NCBI GenBank assembly: GCA_028282505.1
Contig: JANQHV010000129.1
Coordinates: 1-62,506 of the forward strand
Source of the DNA: SAR324 cluster bacterium
GTDB taxonomy: Bacteria > SAR324 > NAC60-12
Reading direction: 5' to 3'
Length of the DNA: 62,506 nt
Position 1 is the stretch's first letter, and each line of letters starts with the position of its first letter. A program made the translations under genes and the position numbers. The notes under the pieces are model-generated. The model saw only the letters and a list, made by a program, of their open reading frames with translations, did not search any database and was not told where the DNA came from. This document shows positions 13,799-34,219 of this stretch, piece by piece.

Positions 13799-13936
13799 AA
13801 GATGAATTCCTCGACTCTGACAGTTTGTATAAAGGAGTTTTACATTACAGTATTCTTTTTGTAAGATACACAGGTTGCAAACTTATTTCTGTTTGTCTGT
13901 GAACAAAGATAAAAAAACCAAAATCAAAGGATTGCT

Positions 13937-14299
13937 ATGAAAAAAATTATCCTCCTTTTTGCCTTGGCGGCTATGGGTATTGCCGCACTGTTGGCAATTA
14001 ACCCTGAATTTCACTCTGAGGTGGAAGGCTTGTGGAGTAACCAGGAAGATGCTATCGAAAATCTTCAGAAAACACAAGAAACGGCATTGGAAAAAATGGA
14101 ACAACTGAAAGAGGTGAGTGGCGAAGTCTTCGAAAAAGGAAAGGAGGCATTGGAAGAAATGGAAAAATTGCAAGACGTCAGCCGAGAAGTTCTTGAAAAA
14201 GGACAGGAGGCCGTTGATCAGTTAAAAGGGATGGCTGAAGAGACGATGGAAAAAGCCAAAGATGCGACATCCGACGTCGAGAAACGCCTTAACAATTAG
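13937..14299 (+). CDS. Secreted Glu/Lys-rich coiled-coil protein
   Basis: Signal peptide MKKIILLFALAAMGIAALLA. Internal ~20-aa repeat (EKMEQLKEVSGEVFEKGKEA / LEEMEKLQDVSREVLEKGQEA). Ends 17 nt before the next gene. Confidence 0.5.
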   Translation: MKKIILLFALAAMGIAALLAINPEFHSEVEGLWSNQEDAIENLQKTQETALEKMEQLKEVSGEVFEKGKEALEEMEKLQDVSREVLEKGQEAVDQLKGMAEETMEKAKDATSDVEKRLNN

Positions 14300-14315
14300 T
14301 TCTATTGGAGAATTT

Positions 14316-16466
14316 ATGACGGAACTGTCCTCCATTACCGCATTGATCATCGATGATGAACCACAGATTTGTTACTTTTTTGTGGAAATATTAAAAAGGC
14401 AGGGAATTCAATCTTTCACAGCAGAAAATGGTCAACAAGCTCTAGAATTACTAGAACAGCAGAAAATCGATTTTATCATTACAGATGTCAAAATGCCTGT
14501 AATGGATGGCATTGAACTCACTAAAAAAGTGCGTCAGGATTATGAAGAACTTCCTATTGTGTTGATCAGTGGATATAGCAATGAAGATACGGTCATTATG
14601 GCTCTTCGGGCGGGAGCAAACAATTTCTTAAAAAAACCAATAGAGGCTCATGAGTTTTATAAAGTGGTTCTACCGATTGTACACACCATCGAACAAAAAA
14701 AATCCCAAGCCTTTGATTATAGCGTTGTCCGTCAATTATCCGATGAATTCTGTTTAACAAATGATATCACCTTGATTCCAGGATTGGTTGATTATTTATT
14801 ACAACACCTCAAAACAAGCCCTTACTCTTCACGATTACATGGGCTAAAAATTGCTCTTTATGAAATGATTGTCAACGCCATCGAGCATGGTAATTTGGAA
14901 ATTACGCAAGAAGACCAGGAAGAGGCTCTCGAAAAAGAGTGTTTTGAGGAATTGGTTCAGGAACGCCTTCAAGATCCAGATTACCAACACCGCCAAGTTT
15001 ATGTGCAATATGAATACAGCCCGATACAATTGTCCTGTACAATTGTCGATGAGGGCAAAGGTTTCGATTGGCGCCAATTCCCTAATGCACTCTCCGAAGA
15101 AACATTATTTTCAAAGAGAGGCCGTGGCATCATGATGGCCCAGATGTATTGTGATGAAGTACGCTATAATGAAAAGGGAAACCAGGTGACACTGATTATC
15201 AGGAATGAAAATGCCTCCCATGCTATACCAGAGAATATGTCATCATCTCTCAATAGCTGCCAAGCACACATTTTGGTTGTTGAGGATAATCCTCTCAACT
15301 TCGAGCACATCAAAGATGTGCTGGAGAAGTTGGGATATTCCTTTGGAGGACTCCCCCATCCTAACGATTTATTTATACTCCTAGAACATAAAGAACAAAA
15401 GAATAATCAATTTGATTTGATTTTAATGGACATCCACATGCCAGAAATCAACGGAATCATGCTGTTGAAACAACTCAAAGCACACTCTGTTTTCCAGAAA
15501 ATTCCAGTTATCATGCTAACGGGAGAAACGAATCACCAAACATTGGCTGAATGCTTTGAGCATGGCGCAGAGGATTTCATCAATAAACCAGTCAGTCCAT
15601 TAGTTCTAAAATCCCGGATTCAATCAGTGTTGAACAGGCAGAAATACATTCACCAAATCCAAAAAGTCAGTAGTGAACTGGCCACTCAATATGAACTCTT
15701 ATCTAAGACACAAATTGCTCTAGAAAAAAAACATCAACAAATTCAGGAAGATGTTTATCTGGCCGCCAACGTTCAAAAGGCAACTCTGCCTCCTCCACCA
15801 AACCTCCCATTCTTGAAAACATCCATTATTTTTCAACCGCGCAGTATTGTTTCTGGAGATATTTATTTCATGTCAGAAGATGATACGGGCAGTATGAGGA
15901 TTTTTTTAGGAGATGCAACCGGTCATGGGATCTCAGCAGCACTTTTAAGTATGTTGGTTCGTATGGGGTTGGAGCAAATTAAACTGGAGGATTCGTCTGA
16001 TAAAATTCTGAAACAACTGAATACACAACTCGCATCTTGTATTCCCAAAGATGACTACATTACTGGCATTTATTTAAAAATTACTCCACAAGGTGTTCTA
16101 AAAATCAGCAGTGCTGGCAACACACCTGGGGTTCTCCTATCTACTGCTCAGCAAGACATCACTTTTTTAACAGATGGAGGGCAGGCGCTTGGCATGTTTC
16201 CCCAAGAACGGATTCCTTATACAGAAGAAATCCATCATCTCAAACCAGGCGATAAAGTGCTGCTCTATACAGATGGTATTCTGGAATGGACAAACAAAGC
16301 CCATCAAGCATTTGGTATCGAACGCTTAGAAAACTATCTCATCCAACATAAAGAACAAGAAATCAATATCCTTTTAACAGGTTTGTTGGAATATTCACAG
16401 GAGTTTGCCCAACGGAACCCGTGCCAAGATGACCTGACACTATTGGGTTTCCAATTCCTCGGATAG
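14316..16466 (+). CDS. Partner-switching regulator: REC, RsbW-like Ser kinase (HATPase_c_2), REC, PP2C/SpoIIE phosphatase (HsbR/RsbU-like)
   Basis: REC1 (LIIDDEP ... ITDVKMPVMDG ... KKP). Kinase boxes EMIVNAIEHGN, DEGKGFD, GRGI. REC2 (ILVVEDNP ... LMDIHMPEING ... NKP). PP2C motifs VSGDIYF, GDATGHGISAAL, LYTDGI, QDDLTLL. GGAG lies upstream of ATG 14316. Confidence 0.85.
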   Translation: MTELSSITALIIDDEPQICYFFVEILKRQGIQSFTAENGQQALELLEQQKIDFIITDVKMPVMDGIELTKKVRQDYEELPIVLISGYSNEDTVIMALRAGANNFLKKPIEAHEFYKVVLPIVHTIEQKKSQAFDYSVVRQLSDEFCLTNDITLIPGLVDYLLQHLKTSPYSSRLHGLKIALYEMIVNAIEHGNLEITQEDQEEALEKECFEELVQERLQDPDYQHRQVYVQYEYSPIQLSCTIVDEGKGFDWRQFPNALSEETLFSKRGRGIMMAQMYCDEVRYNEKGNQVTLIIRNENASHAIPENMSSSLNSCQAHILVVEDNPLNFEHIKDVLEKLGYSFGGLPHPNDLFILLEHKEQKNNQFDLILMDIHMPEINGIMLLKQLKAHSVFQKIPVIMLTGETNHQTLAECFEHGAEDFINKPVSPLVLKSRIQSVLNRQKYIHQIQKVSSELATQYELLSKTQIALEKKHQQIQEDVYLAANVQKATLPPPPNLPFLKTSIIFQPRSIVSGDIYFMSEDDTGSMRIFLGDATGHGISAALLSMLVRMGLEQIKLEDSSDKILKQLNTQLASCIPKDDYITGIYLKITPQGVLKISSAGNTPGVLLSTAQQDITFLTDGGQALGMFPQERIPYTEEIHHLKPGDKVLLYTDGILEWTNKAHQAFGIERLENYLIQHKEQEINILLTGLLEYSQEFAQRNPCQDDLTLLGFQFLG

Positions 16467-16787
16467 TGCCTCTTCTTCGGTTTCATAAATCCGAATCATT
16501 CGATCCAGCCTCAGCGTTTTCAACACATTGAGACAATTGGAATTGACATTGGATATCACTAAGGCTTTTTGAAGCTCTTCGAGGGTTTGTAAAGTCGTAG
16601 CAATCACTCCCACTCCTTTAGAGTCAATGACCTCGATCTTATCCAAGTTCAGCAATAAGGTTTTGATATTGGAATCATTAATCAGAGGATTGAGGTATAT
16701 TTTAACCGCTTGATTTTCCTGCAATGCTAAATTGCCGATCAGGTTAACAACACACACATGCTTTTCGATACGATGGAACAGTTTCAT
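16440..16787 (-). CDS. STAS-domain anti-sigma-factor antagonist (HsbA/RsbV/SpoIIAA-like)
   Basis: 115 aa with the conserved phosphorylatable Ser context LDKIEVIDSKGVGVI. Lies 45 nt downstream of cheB on the same strand. Confidence 0.85.
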   Translation of the reverse strand: MKLFHRIEKHVCVVNLIGNLALQENQAVKIYLNPLINDSNIKTLLLNLDKIEVIDSKGVGVIATTLQTLEELQKALVISNVNSNCLNVLKTLRLDRMIRIYETEEEALSEELETQ

Positions 16788-16832
16788 GAATTCTCCTGAT
16801 TACTCGTCAATGTTTCGTTGTTTGAACTTATG

Positions 16833-17888
16833 TTAGCTTTTATTTTGGAGCAATTGTATCAAAGCAGCGGGAATGCCTCCCAGGGGCACCAAACGCTCTG
16901 CTCCCCCCCGGTGATAAGCTTCTTTAGGCATTCCAAACACAACACAACTTTGCTCATCCTGTGCCAGGGTGCGTGCTCCTGCCTGACGCATGGCCAACAT
17001 CCCATCAGCTCCATCACTGCCCATTCCAGTGAGCATGATACCAATGGCATTGGCCCCAGCGTACTTGGCGACTGATTGAAACAATACTTCAACGGAAGGA
17101 CAGTGTCCCATCACTTTTTCTCCAGGTTGACAACGTACCAGATAAATACCACCTGAGCGCTGGATGGTCATGTGTTGATCTCCCGGAGCCAGTAAAACAC
17201 GGCCCGGCAAAACACGGTCTCCACTTTGAGCTTCCTTGACATCCACAGCACATTGACTGTTAAGACGCTCTGCATAAGTCCTGGTAAATCCAGATGGCAT
17301 GTGCTGCACAATGACAACACCGGGGATAGTGGAGGGCAGTCGAGTCAGTACACGCACAAGTGCCTCCACCCCTCCAGTGGAGGCTCCAATAGCAATCACC
17401 TTATCCGTAGAAACGGCCAAAGCATGAGACTGAATTTTCTGGAGACTTTGTTCTTGCTGTTTACCCTTCCTTTTCCAGTGACTAACATCCACATTGGCTG
17501 CCATTTTGACTTTCGAACAAATCTCCTCCAGCATCATTTCCAAACCTCCAGCAACATTGACGCTGGGTTTGGTCACAAAATCAACCGCTCCCGCATCAAG
17601 AGCATCAAAGGTGAGGCGTTGTCCTTTCCCAGTTAATGCACTGACCATTACCACCGGCAGAGGAAATTGAGGCATCATGTGGCGCAGAAACTCCACTCCA
17701 TCCATTCGAGGCATTTCCACATCCAATGTCAGAACATCTGGTCGTAGCTTAAAAATTTTTTCCCTGGCAATATAAGGATCCATGGCCACCCCGACCACTT
17801 CAATCATCGGGTCTTTGTTCAACCCTTCACTTAAAATGCTTCGAACCAGTGCCGAATCATCAATGACCAGTACACGAACTTTTTTCAT
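16833..17888 (-). CDS. cheB: Chemotaxis response regulator protein-glutamate methylesterase
   Basis: N-terminal REC (VLVIDDS ... LTLDVEMPRMDG) plus the CheB catalytic domain (IGASTGG, GMGSDGA). Confidence 0.95.
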   Translation of the reverse strand: MKKVRVLVIDDSALVRSILSEGLNKDPMIEVVGVAMDPYIAREKIFKLRPDVLTLDVEMPRMDGVEFLRHMMPQFPLPVVMVSALTGKGQRLTFDALDAGAVDFVTKPSVNVAGGLEMMLEEICSKVKMAANVDVSHWKRKGKQQEQSLQKIQSHALAVSTDKVIAIGASTGGVEALVRVLTRLPSTIPGVVIVQHMPSGFTRTYAERLNSQCAVDVKEAQSGDRVLPGRVLLAPGDQHMTIQRSGGIYLVRCQPGEKVMGHCPSVEVLFQSVAKYAGANAIGIMLTGMGSDGADGMLAMRQAGARTLAQDEQSCVVFGMPKEAYHRGGAERLVPLGGIPAALIQLLQNKS

Positions 17889-17942
17889 TCTATCTATAGT
17901 TCTATAGAAAATTGCATTTATTTTGCTCTCTGTAGCAACTGG

Positions 17943-18126
17943 TATCTAGTATGGTGTGATTTTCTATTTTTGTCATTCTGGCGGCCCTCCGAAGCGGCTC
18001 GACCCGGAATCTAGGAGTATGCATCATTTTTCATTATCTGGATACCGGATCAAGTCCGGCATGACAAGTTATTGAAATTATTATATTTATTAAAGTAAAA
18101 TAGAGAAAATCACAAGATACTATCTA
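17943..18126. mobile_element. MITE-like nested inverted-repeat element with GC-rich core
   Basis: Imperfect ~28-bp terminal inverted repeats (17943-17970 vs 18097-18126, shared core GTGATTTTCT) enclose TTGTCATTCTGGCGG...CCGGCATGACAA and CCGG-rich hairpins. GC content contrasts with the AT-rich flanks. Confidence 0.5.
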
Positions 18127-18183
18127 AATTTGGGTATGATCATATTTTCGTCTGATAAACACTTTTCATATATTTGGCAGAAC

Positions 18184-18264
18184 TGCTCTCTGAGCTTGTC
18201 GCAGAGCAAACGCTGGTTTTGCTTTGGCAAGCTCAACAGGCAGAATGGCCAAAAATATGATCAA
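18184..18264 (+). repeat. Dispersed hairpin repeat, family 2, copy A (degenerate stem)
   Basis: TGCTCTCTGAGCTTGTCG...CAAGCTCAACAGGCAGAATGGCCAAAAATATGATCAA aligns to 27936-28033. Sits immediately after the cheR stop. Confidence 0.75.
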
Positions 18265-18268
18265 GCCC

Positions 18269-19090
18269 CTAAATTTTTTGATAAACGGAAGGAGCAATAT
18301 AGCGATAAGGGCAATCGGTTTTATCCAAAGATTCTGTCATTCCAATGAAAAGGTATCCTCCATCTTCTGTAACATCATAAAATTTTCGAATGAGCTGTTT
18401 AATAGTTTCACGATTAAAATAGATCATCACATTGCGACAAAAGATGGCAAAAAATTTTCCTTTAAATGGAAAGCTCGACTGAATCAGGTTACAGTAACTA
18501 AAATGTACCATCGCTCTGATCTCCGGTTTCACTTCCCATATTCCTTGTTTTTTTGGATTAAAATAATTCATGCGTATTATGGGAGGAACTTTTTTTAGTC
18601 GATCTGCTGGGTAATTTCCCCGGTAGGCTTCATTGAGCTTATTGCTATCAATATCGGTCGCCAATACAGCTGTATTCCACTGAGACGAAGAATCTTTAAA
18701 GAATTCCTGCAAAAGCATGCAAATGGAATACGCTTCTTCTCCCGCAGAACAACCCGCTGACCAGATATTAAGATTGGAGTCTTGATAAGTAAAAGGTCGG
18801 GCGGTTTTTTGGGGCAAAGCATGTCGCTGCAAAAAGTCAAAATGGTCTTCTTCCCGGAAAAAGTAACTGTAGTTGGTAGTAATCCGGTTGGCCAGTGTAG
18901 CTAATGCCTGACCCGTGGTATCTCCTTGCAGATAATAATAGTATTCACTGAAATTCTTAAATCCATGCTCATTGATTAACGGCTGCAAGCGGTTTAATAC
19001 CAATGCTTGTTTGTCGGGCCCCAGAGCGATTCCCAACTTGTTTTGAATCAGTTGAATCAGTTTTTGATATTCCCAATTTGAAATAGCCAC
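18269..19090 (-). CDS. cheR: Chemotaxis protein methyltransferase
   Basis: CheR N-terminal helical domain plus SAM-dependent methyltransferase (IWSAGCSAGEEAYS, FCRNVMIYF). Apparent GTG start 15 nt after the upstream MCP stop. Confidence 0.9.
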   Translation of the reverse strand: MAISNWEYQKLIQLIQNKLGIALGPDKQALVLNRLQPLINEHGFKNFSEYYYYLQGDTTGQALATLANRITTNYSYFFREEDHFDFLQRHALPQKTARPFTYQDSNLNIWSAGCSAGEEAYSICMLLQEFFKDSSSQWNTAVLATDIDSNKLNEAYRGNYPADRLKKVPPIIRMNYFNPKKQGIWEVKPEIRAMVHFSYCNLIQSSFPFKGKFFAIFCRNVMIYFNRETIKQLIRKFYDVTEDGGYLFIGMTESLDKTDCPYRYIAPSVYQKI

Positions 19091-19105: not shown

Positions 19106-21451
19106 TTACTTGTGAAAATGAAACGAAGTATAAAGGTCCTCTGTCAGTTGATCAGGCGGTGTTAATTGAGGTTCCATCCCAAAAATCTGCCGACGGAGCT
19201 TAAAACGCGCCACTAATTGTTTCAGATTCTGAGCCTGCCCGGTGAGTTCCTCACTGGCCGAAGAGGCTTCTTCAGAGATTTGAGCATTTTGCTGAGTGAT
19301 CTGGTTGAGCTGGCTCAACCCATCATTGATTCCCAGGATGCCACGGGCCTGTTCATTACTGGCAGTCGCAATTTCACTAACCAAGTCTGTCACTTGGACA
19401 GAACCTTCGACAATCTTTTTCAAGGAGACCGCCGTTTCATCTGCGATTTCGGCACCTGCCTCCACTTTTTTAATAGACTCATTGATATTAGCTGCAGTTT
19501 CTCGGACAGCTTCCGCACTATTTTGTGCCAGATTACGAACTTCTTCCGCGACCACCGCAAAGCCTTTTCCATGAACACCGGCTCGTGCAGCTTCCACTGC
19601 AGCATTAATAGCCAATACATTGGTTTGAAACGCAATCACTTCAATGGTTTTGATGATTTTAGAAATATCTTTGGACGATTCATTGATCTCCTGCATGGAT
19701 TGAACCATGCGCTTCATGAGAGCGTTGCCGTCTTCTGCCTGCTGACGTGCGACACTGGCCAATTGATTGGCCTGAGTTGCGTTATCCGCATTAGAACGAG
19801 TTTGGGCTCCCATTTGCTCCATAGAAGCCGAAATTTCTTCCAGAGCAGACGCCTGGTTGGTTGCTCCATTCGAAATTGTCAGGCTGGCACTCGATAACTG
19901 TTCGGCACCACTGTTCAGCTGATTGGCAGAAGCAGCAACCTGATGCAGCACTTCATTCAAACTATCCATCATGGTTTGCTGAGCTTGTCCCAGCGTATCC
20001 TGTGTAGAGACCAAACTTGCTTCAACAGAAAGATTGCCTTCCGCAATTTCCTGCGCTAATCCTACTTTTTCTTTTAAGGATTGGAGCATTTGTTGGAGAG
20101 CTATGCCCAAAATATCTTGTCTAGAAGCTAAACTTACCTGAACATCGAGATTTCCTTTCGCAATTTCTTGAGCAAGTTCCGCTTTCATGTTCAACGCTTC
20201 CACCATTTTTTGCAGTGCATGGTAGATCCCTGTCGCTTCTCTCCCGGTGGATTTGAACTCGAGATCAGTATTGCCTTGAGCCACTTGATCGGCTACCTCT
20301 GCGATAAAGCTCGGTTCTCCTCCGATCTGTTTCATGAGTGACCGTGCGCCCAATAATCCCATCAAAATGACCAGAGTGATGATTACTCCAGAAAACATCA
20401 ACGTATATTTAATGTTTTCCTGATTTTTATTGGCAATTGCCGTGTACAGTTGCACGAGATCATTACTTAACTTTCGCAGGACATTGGATTGGATTAATAT
20501 ATTGCTGCGTGCCTGGCGGTATGGTTCTGATCCGACTTCTTCTTCCAAAAGGATTTGTACGGTTTTGGTAAGTTGAGCAAAAACCCCCTCAATTTCCACA
20601 ATCTTTGCCAGAGAAGCTTCGTCTTTAATGCCTGTTGAGGATCTTGCCTTTGACATAGCCAAGTCCACAGGATATTCTCCTCCAGATTTCATGGCAGTCA
20701 GTGTCTGAGAAAAAATAGTTTTTGCTGTATTGTACTCTCCCAGACTGGGATTCAATTCTGCTCGTCCCAAGGCAATATCTTTAGAAAAAGGAATATCAAA
20801 TCGTCGAATTCCCAACATGTCTCCCACTTCAAAAGGAGTTCCTTTGATGGCAGCATGACAGGTAGCACAGGCCTGTACAGTAGCAATATCAGCTGTATAA
20901 AATCGAACAAACAGTTCTCCATTGTTTTCAGCAGGCTCCATAAAGATTGCCTGTGGATCCTGGCTTAAAAATTTTCCTGCTTTTCTATCAGTATCATCCT
21001 GAAATCCTTTGTTGGGGTTGACAGGTGACTCTGCAAGAATATCTATCTGAAAATTGGCAAATTGCTCATTCACATTTCTGGTGAAAGTAGCAGGAAATGG
21101 AATCGCCGGACCTGTTTCCTGGTGGGGATTCATCGATACTTGAAGGCCAGCTTCTTGTGATGGACCTACGACCATACTGGTATAGGTGGCACGCATCTTG
21201 GTAATATACTCATCCATGCTGGCAATCTTCTTTTCAAGCAACTTGAATTCACTTTTAGCCATAGCATATCCCAGCGCAGACTTTCCCATAGCTTGTGATA
21301 ACATGCGCTGCCTTCCCAACACATCAATGATATCAGCATCATTTTCAGCCACCTCCATAATGCGCATCACATTGGCAAAGGCAACAAGCAATACAACAAA
21401 AATCAGGCCAAGCATGCCATAAACTTTGGACTGCAATGATAAGTTTTTCAT
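19106..21451 (-). CDS. Methyl-accepting chemotaxis protein with PilJ-like and heme-c (DUF3365-like, CxxCH) periplasmic sensor
   Basis: GRQRMLSQ (PilJ/NarX-like P-box), IPFPATF, NPNKGF, CATCH at aa 195-199, TM2, two tandem ~38-aa AQEIAxGNL modules, and the conserved MCP signalling domain ([20 protein letters not shown]). Confidence 0.9.
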   Translation of the reverse strand: MKNLSLQSKVYGMLGLIFVVLLVAFANVMRIMEVAENDADIIDVLGRQRMLSQAMGKSALGYAMAKSEFKLLEKKIASMDEYITKMRATYTSMVVGPSQEAGLQVSMNPHQETGPAIPFPATFTRNVNEQFANFQIDILAESPVNPNKGFQDDTDRKAGKFLSQDPQAIFMEPAENNGELFVRFYTADIATVQACATCHAAIKGTPFEVGDMLGIRRFDIPFSKDIALGRAELNPSLGEYNTAKTIFSQTLTAMKSGGEYPVDLAMSKARSSTGIKDEASLAKIVEIEGVFAQLTKTVQILLEEEVGSEPYRQARSNILIQSNVLRKLSNDLVQLYTAIANKNQENIKYTLMFSGVIITLVILMGLLGARSLMKQIGGEPSFIAEVADQVAQGNTDLEFKSTGREATGIYHALQKMVEALNMKAELAQEIAKGNLDVQVSLASRQDILGIALQQMLQSLKEKVGLAQEIAEGNLSVEASLVSTQDTLGQAQQTMMDSLNEVLHQVAASANQLNSGAEQLSSASLTISNGATNQASALEEISASMEQMGAQTRSNADNATQANQLASVARQQAEDGNALMKRMVQSMQEINESSKDISKIIKTIEVIAFQTNVLAINAAVEAARAGVHGKGFAVVAEEVRNLAQNSAEAVRETAANINESIKKVEAGAEIADETAVSLKKIVEGSVQVTDLVSEIATASNEQARGILGINDGLSQLNQITQQNAQISEEASSASEELTGQAQNLKQLVARFKLRRQIFGMEPQLTPPDQLTEDLYTSFHFHK

Positions 21452-21586: not shown

Positions 21587-23974
21587 CTAAAAATTCCCCA
21601 TATCCTCTTTATTAAAAGAAATCAATTCTTGGGGAGTTGATGCAGCTTTTGTGTTTTCCTCCAAGGCTGCTTCCATTTCGCCATGAGGCAGCTCCGCTGT
21701 AGGCTGATAGGGCAATGTAGCCTGGTGCATGCCAAAGACTTGTTGACGAAGTTTAAAGCGTGACACCAATTGCCTGAGATTCTGAGATTGCCCCTGGAGT
21801 TCCTCACTGGCTGAGGAAGCCTCCTCAGCAATCTGAGCGTTTTGCTGGGTGATCTGATTGAGTTGAGACAATCCATCATTGATCCCTTTGATGCCCTGAG
21901 CCTGCTCATTACTGGCTGTGGCGATTTCACTGACCAAATCAGTTACTTTCACAGATCCCTCCACAATTTCTTTTAGGGCGAGAGCGGTCTCATCTGCAAT
22001 TTTAGCACCTGCTTCTACTTTTTTAATGGACTCATTGATATTGGCTGCGGTTTCCTGGGCTGCTTCCGCACTGTTTTGAGCCAGATTACGAACTTCTTCA
22101 GCGACCACGGCAAAGCCTTTTCCATGCACACCAGCTCGTGCTGCTTCCACCGCAGCATTGATGGCCAGTACATTGGTTTGAAACGCAATCACTTCAATGG
22201 TTTTGATGATTTTGGAAATATTTTCTGAGGATTCATTGATCTCTTTCATGGATTCAACCATGCGTTGCATTTGGGCATTGCCATCTTCTGCCTGTTGACG
22301 TGCAGAAACTGCCAATTGATTGGCCTGGGTTGCGTTATCAGCATTAGAGCGGGTTTGAGCACCCATCTGCTCCATGGAAGAAGCAATTTCCTCCAGAGCA
22401 GAGGCCTGATTCGTGGCTCCATTGGCAATTGTCTGACTGGACCCAGACAATTGTTCCGCACCACTGGTCAATTGATTAGCAGAAGCTGCCACCTGATGCA
22501 GTACCTCATTCAAACTATTGATCATCGACTTTTGTGCTTCTCCCAAAGTGTCCTGTGAAGAAACCAGATTCGCTTCAAGAGAAAGATTCCCTGCCGCGAT
22601 TTCCTGAGCCAATTTCACTTTTTCTTTCAGAGAATGCAGCATCTCTTGCAGAGCAATGCCCAACGTATCATCTTTAGAAGCCAATTGTACCTGGACATCG
22701 AGATTTCCTTTGGCAATCTCCTGAGCAAGTTCTATTTTGAGGTTCAAAGCCTCAACCATCTTTTGCAGTGCATTGTAAATACCCGTTGTTGATGTTTTTG
22801 AGTCCATCTGCAGGTTTGTATTGCCCAAAGCCACTTGTTGCGCAATAGCTTCGATTTTGTCAGGCTCCCCTCCAATCTGTTTCATAATGGAACGCGTGAT
22901 CAAGATAGCGATTGTTCCACCGAGCACCAAGGCTAACAAAGTCCCAAAAATAATAATATAAATAGTCCTGGATGCTGTAGTCTCCGCGGCTTGTTCTCTT
23001 TCTACCATCAAGCCTCTTTCGATGCCAACGAATTCATTCAGCTTCACACGCAGTGCATCCATGCTTGCTTTGCCGATTCCTTTTTCAATCAAAGCAGTGA
23101 TATCATCAATGGTGGTCGTATTTTGATTCATTTCTCGGCGCAGTTCAATTTCAGGAATAGCCGCTTGCTGGAGCCAGTCACTCACCAGTCCTTCAATCTT
23201 TTCCAGCCGGGCCACCTGTGGCGGATTATCACTAACTTTTTGTTTCATTTCTACGATCAATTCCTCAAATCCTTTCTTCCCTTTATGGTAGGGCTCTAGA
23301 TATTCTTCTTGGCCAGTAATCAGAAAACCCCTTTCTCCGGTTTCCATATCAACGATATGAGCCAACAAGTTTTCTGCCTGTAACAATACTTGATATGTAT
23401 GTTCCACCCAACCTACAGCCTCAGCATCCAACGTTGTAGTCTTAGCTTTTCGTTCTTCTAACAATTTTAATTCTATATTAATAAATGTTTCAAAAACCCC
23501 TCGAATGGTATCCATGATGCGTTTACCAGTTCCTTTATCGAGTAAAGCAATGATATCGGTGATGGTGACAGTATTCTTATTCATTTCTCGACGCAACTCT
23601 ATTTCGGGAATAGCTGCTTTTTGGTTCCACTCATTGGACATTTCTTCAATTTTTTCCAATCGGGCCACCTGGGCCGGATTGTCACTGACCAGCTGCTTGG
23701 TTGCCGCCATCAATTCTGCAAATTCGGTAAGTCCATTGTTATACGGTTCTAGATACTCTTCTTGGCCAGCAATTAGAAATCCGCGCTCTCCAGTTTCTTT
23801 ATCCACCATCAACGCCATCAGCCGATTGCCATTAGCCATGACCTTCTGGGTGTGATTAACCCAGCTTGCTGTATCAATCAACGAGTTAATGCTGTTATAG
23901 ACGATGCCCCCAATGACAACCATCAATCCTAATACGATTGCGTTTCCTAAAATCATTTTTGTTCCAAATTTCAT
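21587..23974 (-). CDS. Methyl-accepting chemotaxis protein with tandem CHASE3 sensor domains
   Basis: Two copies of W(V)xHTxxV...ETGERGFLI(A/T)GQEEYLEPY...VSDNPxQVARLEKIE, then TM2, two AQEIAxGNL modules and the MCP signalling domain. ATG 23974 is preceded by GAGG. Confidence 0.9.
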   Translation of the reverse strand: MKFGTKMILGNAIVLGLMVVIGGIVYNSINSLIDTASWVNHTQKVMANGNRLMALMVDKETGERGFLIAGQEEYLEPYNNGLTEFAELMAATKQLVSDNPAQVARLEKIEEMSNEWNQKAAIPEIELRREMNKNTVTITDIIALLDKGTGKRIMDTIRGVFETFINIELKLLEERKAKTTTLDAEAVGWVEHTYQVLLQAENLLAHIVDMETGERGFLITGQEEYLEPYHKGKKGFEELIVEMKQKVSDNPPQVARLEKIEGLVSDWLQQAAIPEIELRREMNQNTTTIDDITALIEKGIGKASMDALRVKLNEFVGIERGLMVEREQAAETTASRTIYIIIFGTLLALVLGGTIAILITRSIMKQIGGEPDKIEAIAQQVALGNTNLQMDSKTSTTGIYNALQKMVEALNLKIELAQEIAKGNLDVQVQLASKDDTLGIALQEMLHSLKEKVKLAQEIAAGNLSLEANLVSSQDTLGEAQKSMINSLNEVLHQVAASANQLTSGAEQLSGSSQTIANGATNQASALEEIASSMEQMGAQTRSNADNATQANQLAVSARQQAEDGNAQMQRMVESMKEINESSENISKIIKTIEVIAFQTNVLAINAAVEAARAGVHGKGFAVVAEEVRNLAQNSAEAAQETAANINESIKKVEAGAKIADETALALKEIVEGSVKVTDLVSEIATASNEQAQGIKGINDGLSQLNQITQQNAQIAEEASSASEELQGQSQNLRQLVSRFKLRQQVFGMHQATLPYQPTAELPHGEMEAALEENTKAASTPQELISFNKEDMGNF

Positions 23975-24050
23975 TTCTACCTCTAACAAATAAATTCAAC
24001 AATAATGCAGTGTCTCTCGACTCAATGCAGTCATCAACATTTTATTTTTA

Positions 24051-24578
24051 TCAGGATGACGTTTGCCGCAACAAATCCAATTCTTTTTTCTGCAGCAATT
24101 CTTCAATATTGAGCAGAATGTAAACCTTATTTTTGGTCTTTCCCATTCCGGCAATAAATTGGTTTTCTGTCGAGTCATCTAATTCCGGAGAGGGGTCAAT
24201 ATCGGTCTTCGGAATACTAACTACTCCAGAAACGGTATCAACGATCAGTCCAGTAGTCACTCCCTGAATATTGACCACCACAAAACAAGAGAACTCATCG
24301 TATTCAATTTCTGGCAAAAGAAATCTTGCACGAAGATCAATGACTGGAATGATCTTGCCACGCAGGTTGATAACCCCTTTCGTATAAGCAGGCATGTGTG
24401 GAACTTCGGTAATTTCGCTGGTTGAATCGCGAATAACGACTTCCACCACAAAACGAATCTCAATTCCATAAAGGGATTTATGGAGAGGAAAGGTTAAAAA
24501 TTTTCCCTCCTGCTCATCTACTTCTTCCTCAACAAGAGAAGCATTTGAAGATGCATTTTCCACTACCTCTTCTGTCAT
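24051..24578 (-). CDS. cheW: Chemotaxis coupling protein CheW
   Basis: FLTFPL..SLYGIEI, VPHMPAYTKGVINLRGKIIPVIDLRARF, GLIVDTV. Confidence 0.9.
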   Translation of the reverse strand: MTEEVVENASSNASLVEEEVDEQEGKFLTFPLHKSLYGIEIRFVVEVVIRDSTSEITEVPHMPAYTKGVINLRGKIIPVIDLRARFLLPEIEYDEFSCFVVVNIQGVTTGLIVDTVSGVVSIPKTDIDPSPELDDSTENQFIAGMGKTKNKVYILLNIEELLQKKELDLLRQTSS

Positions 24579-24658
24579 AATCAACCCCTTTCTTTAATTT
24601 GAGTTTAGTGATAAGTTGAAATGATTTGTTTCCAAATGGTGTGCTTGCTTTTCCTGTT

Positions 24659-27199
24659 TCAATTAACCCTCTGCTCTCTATTTTGTTTTTCCTGCTTATA
24701 TGTAATCTTTTTTGCTAAACTTGCCGCATCCAGAATCAATCCAACTTTTCCACTGCCTAAAATGGTACACCCTGCCAAATGCTCCACATGGGTCATGGTT
24801 TCTGGCACACTTTTCACGACAACCTGCTGTTGACCAATCACTTCGTCTACCAAGAGACAAAATCGACGATTGGCTTGGTCGATCACTAAAACCATTCCTT
24901 CCGACAACCCATTGATATGGGATTGTAGCTGATATACCTTATCAAGACGCATGATCGGCAACAATTTTTCACGAATACGCAACATTTCTTTACCATCCAT
25001 AGTTTCTGTGATCTTTTCTGGTTCGGGTTGCAGGGTTTCCTGAATAGTGGTCGTGGGCAACACATAAAACCCCCGGCCCACCTTAACCAGCAATCCATCA
25101 ATGATGCTCAGTGTCAGAGGTATCCGCAATGTAAATGTACTGCCCTTTCCCATTGTGGAACGAACATCAACACTCCCTCGTAGTTTTTCAATGTTCTTTT
25201 TGACAACATCCATGCCAACACCACGGCCAGAAAAATCAGTAACCACTTGTGCTGTAGAAAATCCGGGTTCCAGAATCAGTTTCCAGACTTCCTCATCGGC
25301 AGGAGAAGCATCTTCGGAAATCAAGCCCCGTTCAATCGCTTTGTTGAGAATAACTTCTCGATTCATTCCTTTGCCATCATCCTGGATGATGATCCAGACT
25401 TCATTGCCAACATGTTGGGCTTCTAGTACAATTTTTCCTCCAGGAGGCTTTCCCGCACTCTGACGCTCTTCAGGAGTTTCCAAGCCATGATCCACTGCAT
25501 TGCGAATGATGTGCAGCAAAGGATCTGCAATCTGCTCTACTAATGTTTTGTCCACTTCACTTTTTTCACCAACCAGCTCCAGTTCTACCTGCTTCCCCAA
25601 TTTTTTTGAAGTGTCGTGTACCACCCGAACCATCTTACGAAACACCGAAGAAACAGGAACCATCCTCATTGACATGGCAATTTCCTGAAGCTCCCGCATG
25701 TTCCTATGAAGCTGACCGGATACTTTTTTCAAACTCTTCAATTCAGTCATCTTCATTTTCAAGGCAGGGTGCTGGGAAACCATGGTCTCTGAGATAACCA
25801 ACTCCCCTACTAGGTTGATCAATTGGTCCAATTTATCAAGGCTCACCCGGATGTCCTGTGTTTTTGGAGCAATGGCGGTTGATGCCGATTTTCTTCCTGT
25901 CTTTTTCTTCTCACTCTGTTTTTGCAGGGCTTGTTCGACATCAGAGGGTGAGGCTTTTCCCATCTGAACCAGGATATCTCCAAGGGGACTTTGCTGCTGT
26001 TGCACAGCCTCCTCGATGTCTCCAGATGTGACAGACCCCATTTCTATCAGGATATCACCCAGCTTTGTCTTTTCCGGATCCGAAGTCAATGTTGTCAATC
26101 GCCGCAAAGCTTGCTCAAAACGTTCAAGATTGAGTGATTTTTGATTAGAAAGGGCTACGACCCCTTCCCGGAGGGTATCAACTACTTCTAAAATACTCTG
26201 GATATTTGAAGCATCTAGTGGAATCTCCTCTGCCTGCATTCCTTCCAAAACTGCCTCAGCCTTGTGACTCAAATTTTCCATTGGACCTACAGCAAGGAAG
26301 CCTGAATTACCTTTGATGCTGTGGAAATTACGAAAGGCGGAATCCAGATAATCTTTGGTATCCATCTCTCCTCCCAGTTTATCCAACACCAAAAAAATGT
26401 CTTCGATTTTTTCCAACTGCTCTAGAGTGTCTGTGATAAATTGCTTCAACCGCTCTGAAGCATTGAGGATTTCTACCATCTCTCCAGAATCATTTGCTGA
26501 GGATGTGGTTTTATCAGAAGAAGCAGTTTTATCGGGCAGCGGAAACAAATCTTCCGGGGTCTGAGGTTCTGACCCTACACACTCAGTATAGTGCCGTTCT
26601 AATTCATGAACCAGAATTCCCATTTCCTGATAGAAAATCCCTTCTGCAAATGTATCCTTCGAATACTTGATCAAATTGCGCAGCAGAGCAGCACTTCGAG
26701 ACAACACCTCTGACAGTGGTATAGATCCCACTTCCTGTTCTAATGAAGAAGTAGAGAGCTCGGACTCTAGTTCTTCTGTTTGTGCCAGTTCGTCCAGGCA
26801 GTCTTCCAGTTGCCTAATAAGTTCATCTGCATCTTCTTCAAATCCCTCTTCGTGAAACTCTTCTTCTACTTGATTGAGCATTTCACTCAACAAATCACAA
26901 CTCTGAATCAATACTTCGGAATACTTGGACTCCCATCTAGTTGCATCACTGCGAAAAACCTGTAAGAGATTTTCAGCGCTATGGGTGACTTTTTGGATGG
27001 TGGTGAAATTCAAAAATCCTGCTCCCCCTTTCAAACTATGAAAAGGGCGAAACAACAAATCCATGGTTTCTTTGATTTCTTCTATATCAGACACTTCTCC
27101 CAAGTGGATCAAAGTTGGTTCCACTGACTCCAGGGTTTCCATGCTTTCTGCAACAAAATCCAGAATCACCTGCTGTTGCTCTTCACCAATTGGTTCCAT
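24659..27199 (-). CDS. cheA: Chemotaxis histidine kinase CheA with two Hpt domains and no recognisable P2
   Basis: Hpt1 FHSLKGGAGFL, Hpt2 FHSIKGNSGFL, tandem LGDIL motif (aa 379-428), P3 IRVSLDKLDQLINLVGELVI, P4 HIIRNAVDHG / DDGKGM / GRGVGMD, P5 CheW-like. Confidence 0.95.
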   Translation of the reverse strand: MEPIGEEQQQVILDFVAESMETLESVEPTLIHLGEVSDIEEIKETMDLLFRPFHSLKGGAGFLNFTTIQKVTHSAENLLQVFRSDATRWESKYSEVLIQSCDLLSEMLNQVEEEFHEEGFEEDADELIRQLEDCLDELAQTEELESELSTSSLEQEVGSIPLSEVLSRSAALLRNLIKYSKDTFAEGIFYQEMGILVHELERHYTECVGSEPQTPEDLFPLPDKTASSDKTTSSANDSGEMVEILNASERLKQFITDTLEQLEKIEDIFLVLDKLGGEMDTKDYLDSAFRNFHSIKGNSGFLAVGPMENLSHKAEAVLEGMQAEEIPLDASNIQSILEVVDTLREGVVALSNQKSLNLERFEQALRRLTTLTSDPEKTKLGDILIEMGSVTSGDIEEAVQQQQSPLGDILVQMGKASPSDVEQALQKQSEKKKTGRKSASTAIAPKTQDIRVSLDKLDQLINLVGELVISETMVSQHPALKMKMTELKSLKKVSGQLHRNMRELQEIAMSMRMVPVSSVFRKMVRVVHDTSKKLGKQVELELVGEKSEVDKTLVEQIADPLLHIIRNAVDHGLETPEERQSAGKPPGGKIVLEAQHVGNEVWIIIQDDGKGMNREVILNKAIERGLISEDASPADEEVWKLILEPGFSTAQVVTDFSGRGVGMDVVKKNIEKLRGSVDVRSTMGKGSTFTLRIPLTLSIIDGLLVKVGRGFYVLPTTTIQETLQPEPEKITETMDGKEMLRIREKLLPIMRLDKVYQLQSHINGLSEGMVLVIDQANRRFCLLVDEVIGQQQVVVKSVPETMTHVEHLAGCTILGSGKVGLILDAASLAKKITYKQEKQNREQRVN

Positions 27200-27217: not shown

Positions 27218-27772
27218 CTATGTTCCTTGCTTTTTTTTATAATCAGCTACTTTTTTTGATAAAGAGCGAAGACTTTCTTCTCTGCTTTTTCCTGTATATC
27301 GATTCATTAATTGTTCTACCTTCTCTTGAAGCCTCTCTGCTAATTCTTCTAAGGTTATTAAATGCAAATCAGCCACACTTGTTAGAAAATAACTGATCAT
27401 TACTGTCAGAATAATCCCAACCTGTTCTGCTATTTCCTGGCTCAAATAAGATTCTGTTAGCTGCTGTTCTCGCATGAGATCCTGAATTTCTCCACAAACA
27501 AAGCGGATGATAGGAGGACCTTTGTTTTCCTTAAGAAATCGATCAATTTCTTCCAGGCGAAAGCAAATCCTTTCCAAAAGCCGCTGATATTTGATTTCTT
27601 CTTTAAAAGAATGAAATTCCTGCCATTTCCTGAGTTTCACCCAATGTTCTTCCAGGTTTTGTAATTGATAGTTCAACTCATGAGGAAGACGCTCTCCAAA
27701 CGATTTTTTTTCTAATTTTCCAAAAGCATAAGCATCTTTAGAAAAAAACATGTGTTCCGTGAATTTGCTCAT
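27218..27772 (-). CDS. Hypothetical helical protein, first gene of chemosensory cluster 1
   Basis: ORF ends 18 nt before cheA on the same strand. ATG 27772 is preceded by AGAGG. No motif recognised. The ORF-track start (27829) is a TTG. Confidence 0.5.
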   Translation of the reverse strand: MSKFTEHMFFSKDAYAFGKLEKKSFGERLPHELNYQLQNLEEHWVKLRKWQEFHSFKEEIKYQRLLERICFRLEEIDRFLKENKGPPIIRFVCGEIQDLMREQQLTESYLSQEIAEQVGIILTVMISYFLTSVADLHLITLEELAERLQEKVEQLMNRYTGKSREESLRSLSKKVADYKKKQGT

Positions 27773-28610: not shown

Positions 28611-28731
28611 AGGAGAGGGCGGGTCACGGTCGCAACTATACTTAAGCGAAAGGATTGCTGATTATCTAATTTTCTGGTATCTTTTTAGGAATAAAAACCT
28701 TCACTGTTAATCCAGTGTTTTGGAAAACACG

Positions 28732-31533
28732 ATGGCTCAAAACACTTTATCCAAAACAGTTTTTTTGTTCTTTGGAATTCTGGTATACGCTACTCCTCTT
28801 CAGGCAAACTACCAGAATGTTTTGGTGGTTAATTCCTATCATGAAGGAATGCCCTGGAACGACAGTTTGATTGCAAGTATCAAGCAAACGTTCAAAGATC
28901 AAAAAGAACCTGTCAATCTGTATATTGAGTATCTGGATAGCAAGCGCATTCATGGTACGATATTCGACTATGAGACTTTGCAAGTTTATGGAATCAGCCC
29001 AAATAAACTTTCAACTGATAGTCGGCTGATCAATCAGTCGGAAACGTTTTTTCAACGTCACCAATCCCTGATTATTGCCTGTGGTATCATTTTTACAGGA
29101 TATGTGATTATACTGATTATTTTACTCTCAAATGTGAAACGGCGCAAAAACGCTGAAAGCACACTACGCTTGCACCAAGAACAATTAGGGGCGTTAGTAG
29201 AACAAAAAACCATTGAGTTAAAGAACAGTGAAGAACGCTATCGTCTATTATACAATGATACACCAGCAATGCTTCATTCTATTGATAAAGACGGTAACCT
29301 CATCAGTGTTAGTGATTATTGGCTGGAAACAATGGGATATGACCGTTCAGAAGTGATTGGCTCCAGTGTATTGACTTACCTGACAAAAGCTTGCCAGCAA
29401 CAAGTAAAAGAAGAGGCCATTCCGCGCTTGGTACAAGAGGGAAAGGTACAAAATTTTGCATACCAATTTGTGAAAAAAAGCGGAGAAATCATTGATATTG
29501 AATGGTCGGCGATTGCCCAACTTGACGCAAACGGAACATTTCGTCATTCCGTGGCTGTCTCATTTGATGTTACCAATCGTAAACAAGCCGAAAAAGCACT
29601 TCAGGAAAGCGTTGGGAAATTACAGGAAAGCGAAGAACGGCACCGCATGTTACTACAAAATGCAGGTATGGGAATTGGTTATTATACACCTCAAGGAGAG
29701 GCAGTCCTGTTTAATGAGCGGGCAATACAAAACCTGGAGGACATTTTCGGCCAAAACAACTATAAAGGCAAATCCGTTTATGAACTATTTGGCCAGGAAT
29801 TGGGGTCTTTCATCATGGAAAGGATCAAAACAACAATCAACAGTACAACACCTCAATACTTTGAAGACGAGTTTAACTTTCTAAACAGAAAAGTTTGGTT
29901 CTATTCTGTATTTAGTAAGTTGATCAATGAAACTGGAAAAGTGCTTGGTGTGCAAATCATATCTGATGATATAACACAACGTAAGCAGATGGAGGAGGAG
30001 TTGCGCATTGCCAAAGAACAGGCTGAGATTGCCAATCAAGCGAAAAGTGTGTATTTAGCCAATATGAGCCATGAAATCCGTACCCCGTTGAACTCCATTG
30101 TTGGTTTTGCTCAGATTTTATCAAATCAAGCACAAAAGCTCCCAGTATCCGATGATTTTAAGGCTTACCTACAACTCATACAAACCAGTGGTAATGATTT
30201 ATCAGAGCTGATTAATAATATACTGGATTTATCCAAAATTGAGGCAGGAAAAATTGATATTCAAAAAGAAACACTCAATCTCAGGCTTTTGATTCAGAGT
30301 ATTTTTCAAATCAACAAAGCTGAGGCCGCCAAACATGATATCTCATTACATTATGAATTTTCTTCACAATTACCAGAATTTGTGATTTCAGACCGCACCA
30401 AAATCAATCAGATTTTGATGAATCTTCTCAGCAATGCGATTAAATTCACTGCAGTGGCACAGCAAGCAAACCACACTGGTGAATCCACCACTCTTCCTGA
30501 AAATAAAAAGATTATACTCCGGGTCACACAAGAAAAGTTCCAGAGGGAATCCTGGCTTGTTTTTGAAGTAGAAGATGCGGGTATTGGTATTTCAAAGGAA
30601 GACCAGAAAACCATTTTTGAGCCTTTCCAACAGGCTGATAGAAACATAAACCGAAGGGTTAGAGGAAGTGGATTGGGGTTGGCCATCGTGAAAAGCATGG
30701 TCGACTTGCTGGGCGGAAAAATAAACCTGAAGAGTCATAAAGAAATGGACCAGTCTTCAGGGGGATCTTGTTTTACTGTGCATATCCCCTTGATGTCAGC
30801 TGAAGACAAAGAAACAGGACCGGGGCATTTGAATTGGGAAGATAATCACTTTTCAGAAAAAAACCGCATCCTGGTTGTGGAAGACAATCCAACCAATCAG
30901 AAGATGATTCAGGCATTATTTCGAGAATTGGGCTTGGAAATCGAGCTTGCTGCCAGTGGAGAGGAAGGCGTTGAAAAAACATTGGCTGCCAGTGAGAAAA
31001 ACCAACCGTTTGATTTGATCCTGATGGATATTCACATGCCTGAAGTGGATGGTATCGCGGCTAGTCAAAAAATTCAGTTATCCCCAGCATGTCACAAAAT
31101 TCCTATCATTGCTCTATCCGCTGAAGTATTTGACTTTCAACAACAAACGGCTCTGTCGGCAGGAATTTCTGACTATCTGCTCAAGCCGATTCAAGTCAAT
31201 GAGCTGGTAGCGATCTTAGTCAAATATTTAAAGCAGGATCAAACGGCTTCGACAGTTGAACAGATCCCCCGAAAGCCATTGCCCGATGATCTGAAGGTGC
31301 AACTACTCGATGAGTTCAAGACACTCGCTGAAATCCCTCATTTCTATAATAGACGTATTCGTATCCAAATTGATAAAATGACTGAACTGTGCAGGGCTCC
31401 GGACGGTAACCTCTATGAGTCACCTTATCTGGCAATTATGAGAAACATTCAGTACATGTCTGATTCTGGAAATTCTGAAGAGATATCAACATTAATCAAT
31501 GAGGCTCTCAATGTCCAATATTCTCGTTCTTGA
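28732..31533 (+). CDS. Hybrid sensor histidine kinase (short periplasmic region, 2 PAS, HisKA, HATPase, REC, C-terminal tail)
   Basis: VLVVNSYHEGMPWND...YIEYLDSKR (ABC_sub_bind-like N-terminus), TM, PAS regions, [33 protein letters not shown] ([13 protein letters not shown]). The tail is homologous to the tail of the 133-2502 protein. Confidence 0.9.
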   Translation: MAQNTLSKTVFLFFGILVYATPLQANYQNVLVVNSYHEGMPWNDSLIASIKQTFKDQKEPVNLYIEYLDSKRIHGTIFDYETLQVYGISPNKLSTDSRLINQSETFFQRHQSLIIACGIIFTGYVIILIILLSNVKRRKNAESTLRLHQEQLGALVEQKTIELKNSEERYRLLYNDTPAMLHSIDKDGNLISVSDYWLETMGYDRSEVIGSSVLTYLTKACQQQVKEEAIPRLVQEGKVQNFAYQFVKKSGEIIDIEWSAIAQLDANGTFRHSVAVSFDVTNRKQAEKALQESVGKLQESEERHRMLLQNAGMGIGYYTPQGEAVLFNERAIQNLEDIFGQNNYKGKSVYELFGQELGSFIMERIKTTINSTTPQYFEDEFNFLNRKVWFYSVFSKLINETGKVLGVQIISDDITQRKQMEEELRIAKEQAEIANQAKSVYLANMSHEIRTPLNSIVGFAQILSNQAQKLPVSDDFKAYLQLIQTSGNDLSELINNILDLSKIEAGKIDIQKETLNLRLLIQSIFQINKAEAAKHDISLHYEFSSQLPEFVISDRTKINQILMNLLSNAIKFTAVAQQANHTGESTTLPENKKIILRVTQEKFQRESWLVFEVEDAGIGISKEDQKTIFEPFQQADRNINRRVRGSGLGLAIVKSMVDLLGGKINLKSHKEMDQSSGGSCFTVHIPLMSAEDKETGPGHLNWEDNHFSEKNRILVVEDNPTNQKMIQALFRELGLEIELAASGEEGVEKTLAASEKNQPFDLILMDIHMPEVDGIAASQKIQLSPACHKIPIIALSAEVFDFQQQTALSAGISDYLLKPIQVNELVAILVKYLKQDQTASTVEQIPRKPLPDDLKVQLLDEFKTLAEIPHFYNRRIRIQIDKMTELCRAPDGNLYESPYLAIMRNIQYMSDSGNSEEISTLINEALNVQYSRS

Positions 31534-33967: not shown

Positions 33968-34035
33968 TGGTTGGTCGGTTTGCATTCCATTCATGAAAAT
34001 GTCATTCCAAGCACATGTGAAGAATCTCCGTGCAA

Positions 34036-34151
34036 CTAGTCACATTTAACTATTCTTTTTTACTTTCTCCTATCTTCTCATATCTACCTCCCTTCTTTTT
34101 TTTCATAAAATAACTATATCTGGCAATAGGTTTTTTCAGGAAAAGTAGATA
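34036..34151 (+). repeat. 116-bp pyrimidine-rich repeat, family 3, copy upstream of cheA2
   Basis: CTAGTCACAT(T/C)TAACTATTCTT...ATCTACCTCCCTTCT...CATAAAATA(A/G)CTATATCTGGC(A/G)ATAGGTTTTTTCAGG.AAAGTAGATA aligns with 36675-36790. Confidence 0.8.
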
Positions 34152-34219
34152 CTCTGCCAAATATACGGCAGACGGTAAAGTTTGCAGGTAGAGACCGTAA
34201 TATACGACAAAAAATCACT

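Follow-up and report, generated by a model that had tools for sequence, protein, structure and literature searches.

Several bacterial regulators are known in which a serine kinase and an opposing serine phosphatase, acting on a STAS-domain partner, are fused in a single polypeptide. HsbR of Pseudomonas aeruginosa and CrsR of Shewanella oneidensis, both bifunctional kinase/phosphatases, are controlled by a receiver, and their respective STAS partners, HsbA and CrsA, are encoded next to them; the crsR and crsA genes lie inside the Shewanella che1 (F7) locus, and Che1 has been proposed to feed CrsR/CrsA (PMC9855816, PMC6482189). In Vibrio fischeri, SypE has the order kinase, receiver (REC), PP2C phosphatase, and controls the STAS protein SypA at Ser56, whose downstream target is no known sigma factor (PMC10120452). 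For both HsbR and SypE, the unphosphorylated protein is the kinase form. Here, we describe a related protein in a contig of 62,506 nucleotides (nt) from an uncultured marine bacterium of the SAR324 cluster (JANQHV010000129.1, in assembly GCA_028282505.1, which is 7.57 Mb in size and 88% complete); the whole of this stretch is referred to below as the window. The protein, to which we gave the name RKRP, is a response regulator composed of a first receiver (REC1), an RsbW-like kinase, a second receiver (REC2) and a PP2C phosphatase, and its gene converges on a STAS gene at the end of a chemosensory (che) operon.

Each half of this protein also has described relatives. The receiver of LvrC from Leptospira interrogans, a protein that has been crystallised with ADP-Mg, is phosphorylated by its cognate kinase LvrB (PMC13269768), and TciR of Vogesella indigofera, in which the kinase residues are kept, was the first genetically studied member of the group that joins a receiver to an RsbW-like domain (PMC12826045). 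LvrC and TciR each stand alone, at ~300 amino acids (aa), and lack a fused phosphatase; for neither of them has a STAS substrate been demonstrated. An anti-sigma role has been proposed for both, and V. indigofera has no homologue of RsbV. A crossing coiled-coil linker, as described for RsbU and RssB, has been put forward as the general route of activation for PP2C phosphatases that carry sensors, among them receivers, at the N-terminus (PMC12143880). RssB, like RsbY of Bacillus cereus, is a stand-alone protein made up of a receiver, a helical linker and a PP2C domain, whereas in RKRP that module forms the C-terminal half, beside an opposing kinase. STAS and serine phosphatase genes are also carried by ancestral F7 (stage 1/2) che clusters (PMC7184735).

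The domains of RKRP and of its STAS neighbour (Table 1) were recognised by strong profile matches, for which chance is excluded. In Pfam, Response_reg matches two stretches of RKRP (E 2e-56), HATPase_c_2 matches residues 173-294 with 53.5 bits (cut-off 27.4) and SpoIIE/PP2C matches residues 524-713 with 118.8 bits; the STAS protein matches PF01740 with 51.8 bits and the anti-sigma factor antagonist family TIGR00377 with 57.7 bits, over cut-off. An earlier reading of this stretch made from its letters (the sequence-only reading) had proposed the order REC-kinase-REC-PP2C, with an intact acceptor aspartate in each receiver. The order was borne out by the Pfam profile hidden Markov model (HMM) search and by an AlphaFold2 (AF2) model (mean predicted local distance difference test score, pLDDT, 80; predicted template modelling score, pTM, 0.40), and both aspartates are in place. 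In REC1, the phosphorylation set consists of the acidic pair D13-D14, the acceptor D57 (in TDVKMP), S85, F104 and K107; in REC2, it consists of the acidic pair E323-D324, the acceptor D372 (in MDIHMP), T402, F421 and K424. The reading frame of the gene is open from position 14262, and the start was taken as the ATG at 14316; the longer start at 14262 was discarded because this ATG has a GGAG ribosome-binding site 8 nt upstream, avoids an overlap with an upstream open reading frame (ORF) that ends at 14299, and is the methionine from which the orthologues align.

Which of these parts have been conserved? We read residue conservation from an alignment of ten full-length RKRP orthologues, which are 41-54% identical. 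The N-box (E183, N187, H191-G192-N193), the G1 box (D245xG247xG249) and the G2 box (G269xG271) of the kinase are invariant in all ten, as are the metal-binding aspartates of the PP2C domain (D515, D533, D653, D705 and D706); as far as catalytic residues can tell, both opposing enzymes look intact. The acceptor D57 of REC1 is likewise invariant in all ten proteins. The acceptor of REC2, in contrast, is an aspartate in seven, an asparagine in two (P0007 and P0011) and a glutamate in one (P0012), and the second acidic-pocket residue of REC2 is asparagine or histidine in six of the ten. Both receivers are canonical in the subclade to which the window belongs; family-wide, REC1 alone is the input predicted to be universally phosphorylatable.

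How might such a protein have arisen? First, the N-terminal half (residues 10-294) aligns end to end with at least eight free REC-kinase proteins of ~300 aa encoded in the same genome (30-33% identity). Second, the C-terminal half aligns end to end with free REC-PP2C proteins of ~380 aa, also from this genome (32-45% identity). Third, the junction (residues 301-315) is disordered, and is the sole long disordered segment in the AF2 model. On these grounds, RKRP is a fusion of a REC-kinase of the LvrC/TciR type with a REC-coiled-coil-PP2C protein of the P. aeruginosa RssB/RsbU type, with a flexible linker between them. The end-to-end alignments with free single-receiver proteins also make the claim of the sequence-only reading that each enzyme has its own receiver a well-founded one.

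Searches against known structures gave a similar division. Residues 4-290 of Leptospira LvrC (PDB 9QIH_A; the PDB sequence file names this entry 'SenB', and the Foldseek title gives LvrC) align to residues 7-293 of RKRP (phmmer against PDB, E 2.3e-25; Foldseek probability 1.0). The best Foldseek match of the RKRP model is P. aeruginosa RssB (3F7A/3EQ2; E 2.6e-22, ~406 columns), and the PP2C domain of SiaA also matches that of RKRP (TM 0.81). The defining arrangement of the LvrC/TciR type, a receiver followed by an RsbW-like GHKL domain with full-length homology, is found in the N-terminal half only, and the C-terminal half conforms to the REC-PP2C type of RssB and RsbY. The long helix between REC2 and the phosphatase (residues 428-490) is probably a coiled-coil signalling linker, and as modelled it fits the crossing coiled-coil picture of PP2C activation. 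REC2 and this helix together share 36% identity over 207 aa with the N-terminus of a REC-HisKA kinase encoded at 31499-33139. REC1 and REC2 are ~24% identical to each other. No C-terminal receptor-like docking pentapeptide is visible on RKRP, and the orthologues in the alignment stop at the last PP2C strand.

The STAS protein carries the motif IDSKGVG, in which the phosphorylatable serine is Ser56. As in the HsbR and CrsR systems, the locus thus has an adjacent STAS gene with a phosphorylatable serine, and the convergent gene with a conserved serine that the sequence-only reading had placed 45 nt after cheB is indeed there: its start lies 45 nt past the cheB stop and is served by an AGGAG ribosome-binding site, and the RKRP and STAS genes overlap at their 3′ ends, over 27 nt (16440-16466). 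The two genes also share the start context GGAGAATT[T/C]ATG.

A convergent STAS gene stands directly after RKRP, tail to tail, in all six RKRP-bearing genomes, which belong to two families, and in five of the six the che operon ends with it. The gene order is unk184-cheA-(cheW)-(MCPs)-cheR-cheB-STAS in four genomes, where unk184 encodes a 184-aa protein and the MCPs are methyl-accepting chemotaxis proteins; it is cheA-STAS in TL4, and in genome G071 the STAS gene comes after a CheA-like gene, with cheA, cheW, MCP and cheR genes adjoining. The genes on the other flank of RKRP differ in every one of the six genomes. The convergent 3′ ends overlap by 24 nt in TL4 (locus L001, 12119-12142), and there is no overlap at loci L002 and L003. 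The five STAS orthologues that were aligned agree in the motif IDS[KR]G[VI]G; the STAS gene of the sixth locus (L020), found as a tblastn match of 52% over 110 aa, is not among these five.

CheA is the sole kinase that is conserved in synteny with RKRP, and both Hpt histidine motifs are kept in all six RKRP-linked CheA proteins (that of the window and the orthologues at L001, L002, L003, L019 and L020). At L002, the acceptor of REC2 is an asparagine and all of the che genes are still present, which points to REC1 as the conserved target of CheA, provided that CheA is the phosphate donor. A cheY gene is absent from the che cluster of the window and from those at the five other RKRP loci. In a cluster without CheY, RKRP is therefore the only candidate output besides CheB.

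The fusion is rare. We found the full-length fusion in six of 88 species genomes of the phylum, in two families. When a profile of the ten orthologues was compared with 1.84 billion representative proteins, two full-length representatives only were recovered, at 1140 bits, and the next match, at 443 bits, was a REC-PP2C protein. The closest proteins come from SAR324-cluster metagenome-assembled genomes (MAGs) and from 'Deltaproteobacteria bacterium TL4'. A small family in the Rhodocyclaceae (P0204) has the same REC-kinase-REC-PP2C order and scores 254 bits against the RKRP profile, as compared with 1140 for the orthologues. Because free REC-PP2C proteins are 82-84% identical to the C-terminal half of the P0204 fusion, this family is, judged by identity, clearly an independent and recent fusion. 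In a Rhodocyclaceae MAG (L022:3721-5802), the fusion adjoins genes for an ANTAR (NasT-like) regulator and a nitrate/NMT1-type ABC transporter, with neither STAS nor che genes nearby.

Other layouts of the same parts were also found. Paramagnetospirillum magnetotacticum has a permuted REC-PP2C-REC-kinase protein with two receivers (WP_082036566), and there are single proteins with REC-kinase-PP2C, kinase-PP2C and REC-PP2C-kinase-STAS layouts. One genome (G043) has a split operon of REC-PP2C, REC-kinase and STAS genes; another (G044) has a REC-X-PP2C gene translationally coupled to a following REC-kinase gene, whose product is 48% identical to the N-terminal half of RKRP. The two-receiver logic is thus recurrent but rare, and our literature search found no paper describing a two-receiver kinase/phosphatase layout.

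How, then, does RKRP compare with the systems that have been described? The sequence-only reading had taken HsbR as the closest precedent; SypE, LvrC/TciR and P. aeruginosa RssB are closer. As far as domain order goes, residues 141-714 of RKRP follow the kinase-REC-PP2C arrangement of SypE. The single receiver of SypE is the central one, whereas in RKRP a further receiver (residues 8-130) stands ahead of the kinase, and SypE is encoded in the syp polysaccharide locus and fed by hybrid kinases, whereas RKRP is encoded at a che operon. HsbR and CrsR have the order REC-PP2C-kinase with one receiver, in contrast to the REC-HATPase_c_2-REC-SpoIIE order of RKRP, and matches of the HsbR type (P0016 and P0023; REC-SpoIIE-HATPase_c_2) share 23-24% identity with RKRP over about half of its length. 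HsbR and CrsR control RpoS or FlgM/HsbD, and their che clusters have cheY, unlike that of RKRP. Ancestral F7 clusters comprise cheY, cheA, cheW, aer2-like and mcpA-like receptor genes, cheR, cheD, cheB, a STAS gene and a serine phosphatase gene. The RKRP cluster shares cheA, cheW, cheR, cheB, STAS and the phosphatase with them, but its gene content differs from that of these ancestral clusters: it has neither cheY nor cheD, and its receptors are of the CHASE3 and PilJ/Tll0287 types.

Taking these observations together, we propose, with a probability of roughly 55%, that a chemosensory pathway of alternative function, without CheY, has RKRP as its response-regulator output, and that RKRP in turn determines whether the neighbouring STAS protein is phosphorylated on its serine. 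The pathway would consist of the 184-aa protein, the cluster's CheA (CheA1), CheW, two MCPs, CheR and CheB, leading to RKRP and then to the STAS protein. Phosphorylated CheA1 would phosphorylate REC1 through one or both of its Hpt domains, and probably REC2 as well where, as here, the aspartate is present. By analogy with RsbU and RssB, phosphorylated REC2 would order the long helix, so as to dimerise and activate the PP2C domain. Phosphorylation of REC1 may release or re-pose the receiver on the kinase dimer, as has been proposed for LvrC, and would change kinase activity, most likely lowering it if the analogy with HsbR and SypE holds. The outcome would be a reciprocal push-pull switch at Ser56 of the STAS protein, whose two forms would bind different partners; candidates are the RKRP kinase domain acting as an anti-sigma factor (as for CrsR) and other proteins (as for SypA and HsbA).

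Several points weigh against this proposal. The transfer of phosphate from CheA to the receivers is deduced from synteny alone, and other donors are possible in a genome where ~365 ORFs contain a receiver and where Hpt proteins and hybrid kinases are numerous; two hybrid kinases are encoded just past the cluster (28720-33139). The free REC-kinase genes of the host genome mostly do not lie beside STAS genes, and the role proposed for LvrC and TciR is that of an anti-sigma factor, STAS kinase activity being a presumption for this subfamily. The sign of the effect of REC1 on the kinase is a guess. In Shewanella, the link from Che1 to CrsR is still worded as 'could be involved', and a genome of the same genus as the host (G041) has no RKRP.

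A possible reading, to which we lean less than to the proposal above and which overlaps with it, is that the GHKL domain is mainly a receiver-gated anti-sigma factor, as for CrsR and as proposed for LvrC, that the STAS protein is its antagonist, that the output is transcriptional, and that the kinase merely resets the STAS protein. The kinase domains of CrsR and HsbR bind RpoS, and the STAS protein belongs by its match to the anti-sigma factor antagonist family; nevertheless, SypA and HsbA show that the STAS proteins of fused kinase/phosphatase regulators can have non-sigma targets. The sequence-only reading had suggested that the che cluster feeds a sigma or anti-sigma output. Its link between che cluster and partner switch is real, with the arrangement kept in all six genomes and cheY lacking throughout, whereas a sigma output is only one possibility, as no sigma or anti-sigma gene is linked to RKRP in any locus examined. 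This reading is compatible with RKRP as a chemosensory output and equally with both alternatives that follow.

We regard as doubtful a second explanation, in which CheA1 serves one receiver and a different kinase or Hpt protein serves the other, so that RKRP would integrate two signals on one STAS serine. The candidates for a second donor are the hybrid kinases at 28720-33139, which resemble LvrA/LvrB, and an Hpt-bearing kinase at 46437-50594. Each half of RKRP is homologous to free single-receiver regulators, presumably each with a kinase of its own, and two receivers with so little identity to each other could differ in specificity; moreover, LvrC, which the N-terminal half resembles, receives its phosphate from a HisKA kinase under the control of a receiver, and such a kinase (31499-33139) is encoded 4.3 kb from the cluster. 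Some histidine kinase is indeed found near the cluster in every orthologous locus. Yet these kinases are mutually non-orthologous, with a generic identity of 28-31%, and we rejected them as a conserved second donor; CheA alone keeps its place, and with its two Hpt domains it could serve both receivers. Because the REC2 aspartate is lost in three of the ten orthologues, integration of two inputs cannot be the conserved function of the family. The 'two independent inputs' of the sequence-only reading are an assumption.

If CheA1 did serve both receivers, a more specific form of the chemosensory proposal could be imagined, although we hold it to be unlikely: the duplicated Hpt (P1) domains of CheA1 would phosphorylate both receivers, turning the STAS kinase off and the phosphatase on together, such that graded CheA activity would be converted into a sharp switch, the sole output of the pathway.

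That RKRP and the STAS protein make up a partner switch complete in itself, which just happens to lie beside the che operon, with orphan kinases feeding the receivers and the che system signalling through CheB and an unlinked CheY, is in our view very improbable: RKRP does lie on the strand opposite the che genes, in a genome where ~120 STAS genes, 51 PP2C matches and hundreds of receivers make a chance adjacency easier, the Rhodocyclaceae protein of the same architecture has no STAS or che genes nearby, and the closest split relatives (those of G044) are not beside che genes, but the STAS gene is itself the last gene of the che operon, the RKRP/STAS/CheA arrangement is kept in six genomes of two families whose other flanks are all different, none of the six clusters encodes CheY, and other che clusters of the same genome (on contigs C457, C86 and C302) carry partner-switch genes too.

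Table 1. Coordinates of RKRP, its domains, the STAS gene and the linked che genes in the window
Feature	Position	Strand	Basis
RKRP gene (REC-kinase-REC-PP2C response regulator, 716 aa)	14316..16466	+	Pfam, orthologue alignment, AF2 model
REC1 (aa 8-130)	14337..14705	+	Pfam, AF2, residue check
RsbW/SpoIIAB-type GHKL (Bergerat-fold) serine kinase or anti-sigma-like domain (aa 141-296)	14736..15203	+	HATPase_c_2, invariant boxes, LvrC alignment
Disordered inter-module linker, 15 residues (aa 301-315)	15216..15260	+	pLDDT ~31 in AF2; variable and gapped in orthologue alignment
REC2 (aa 318-427)	15267..15596	+	Pfam, AF2, residue check
Single 63-residue helix between REC2 and PP2C (aa 428-490)	15597..15785	+	AF2
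PP2C (SpoIIE/RsbU-type) serine phosphatase domain (aa 500-714)	15813..16457	+	SpoIIE match, invariant metal-binding aspartates, Foldseek
STAS protein, 115 aa, anti-sigma-factor-antagonist type, presumed substrate	16440..16787	-	PF01740, TIGR00377
cheB (REC + methylesterase)	16833..17888	-	Pfam; NCBIfam CheB 438 bits
cheR	18269..19090	-	Pfam CheR, CheR_N
Chemoreceptor, PilJ/Tll0287-like sensor + HAMP + MCPsignal	19106..21451	-	Pfam
Chemoreceptor, two (tandem) CHASE3 domains	21587..23989	-	Pfam
cheW	24051..24584	-	Domain match
cheA1: two Hpt (P1), MshEN-like c-di-GMP motif, dimerisation, HATPase and CheW domains	24659..27199	-	Domain matches
184-aa helical protein, first gene of cluster	27218..27772	-	Orthologues upstream of cheA in three other loci

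Within the cluster, CheA1 carries no receiver domain, and its residues 379-428 match the MshE-type cyclic di-GMP-binding motif NF053729 with 45.5 bits (cut-off 38). The 184-aa protein has no Pfam or NCBIfam match; a word-based homologue search with it returned itself alone, and its AF2 model is poor (pLDDT 59). It belongs to a small family that is present in ten of the phylum's 88 genomes, among them the six that carry RKRP, and further copies occur in the host genome itself at C440:4378-4836 and C398:10393-10809, the former directly upstream of a CheA paralogue. The protein is probably an accessory of the CheA subfamily to which CheA1 belongs. On the other side, 13937-14299 (+) encodes a 120-aa helical protein with weak perilipin/apolipoprotein-like matches, which ends 16 nt ahead of RKRP and is not kept at the same position in the orthologous loci. 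A promoter and terminator scan of 13800-18400 gave matches no more numerous than in shuffled sequence.

Beyond the cluster, 28720-33139 (+) encodes a PAS-HisKA-HATPase-REC hybrid kinase followed by a REC-HisKA-HATPase-REC kinase, a pair that resembles Leptospira LvrA/LvrB. These are followed at 33299-42301 (+) by a second che-like cluster, which encodes a NarL-type regulator, CheA2 (with two Hpt domains), an MCP, CheW and another MCP, and in which CheY, CheB and CheR are lacking. One possibility is that this is a chemosensory system that acts on transcription.

In the host genome, 123 STAS, 51 SpoIIE-type PP2C and 26 HATPase_c_2 matches score over cut-off. We also ran HMMs built from the RKRP domains against all of its ORFs, and this inventory lists 14 free REC-kinase proteins, 28 free REC-PP2C proteins, 19 other PP2C proteins, ~118 single STAS proteins and exactly one REC-kinase-REC-PP2C protein. 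CheA paralogues number at least 11. Serine-phosphorylation switches appear to be very heavily used by SAR324 bacteria such as this one. Elsewhere in the genome, C457:15130-20207 holds a REC-PP2C gene and a kinase-STAS fusion, then a CheA-REC gene; at C86:165-12815, four STAS genes and a REC-PP2C gene lie on the flanks of a che cluster; at C302:14103-15705, a STAS gene lies 68 nt past cheA; and at C346:4379-11543, a REC-kinase gene is found upstream of a CheA gene.

What does RKRP add to the picture? The linkage of che clusters to partner switches, the single-receiver fusions (HsbR, CrsR and SypE) and both half-modules are already known. New are the four-domain layout with one receiver per enzyme and the conserved position in which it seems to form the only output of an array without CheY; the kind of system as such is not new. 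The fused kinase/phosphatase regulators of STAS proteins (HsbR, CrsR and SypE) govern biofilm formation, motility and the stress response. Because each enzyme of RKRP has a receiver to itself and the halves are separable modules with free-standing relatives, RKRP is a naturally dissected switch, in which the gating of the kinase and the gating of the phosphatase can be mutated apart. The locus also lends itself to a clean test of a question raised in the literature, namely, whether chemosensory arrays really signal into partner-switch modules.

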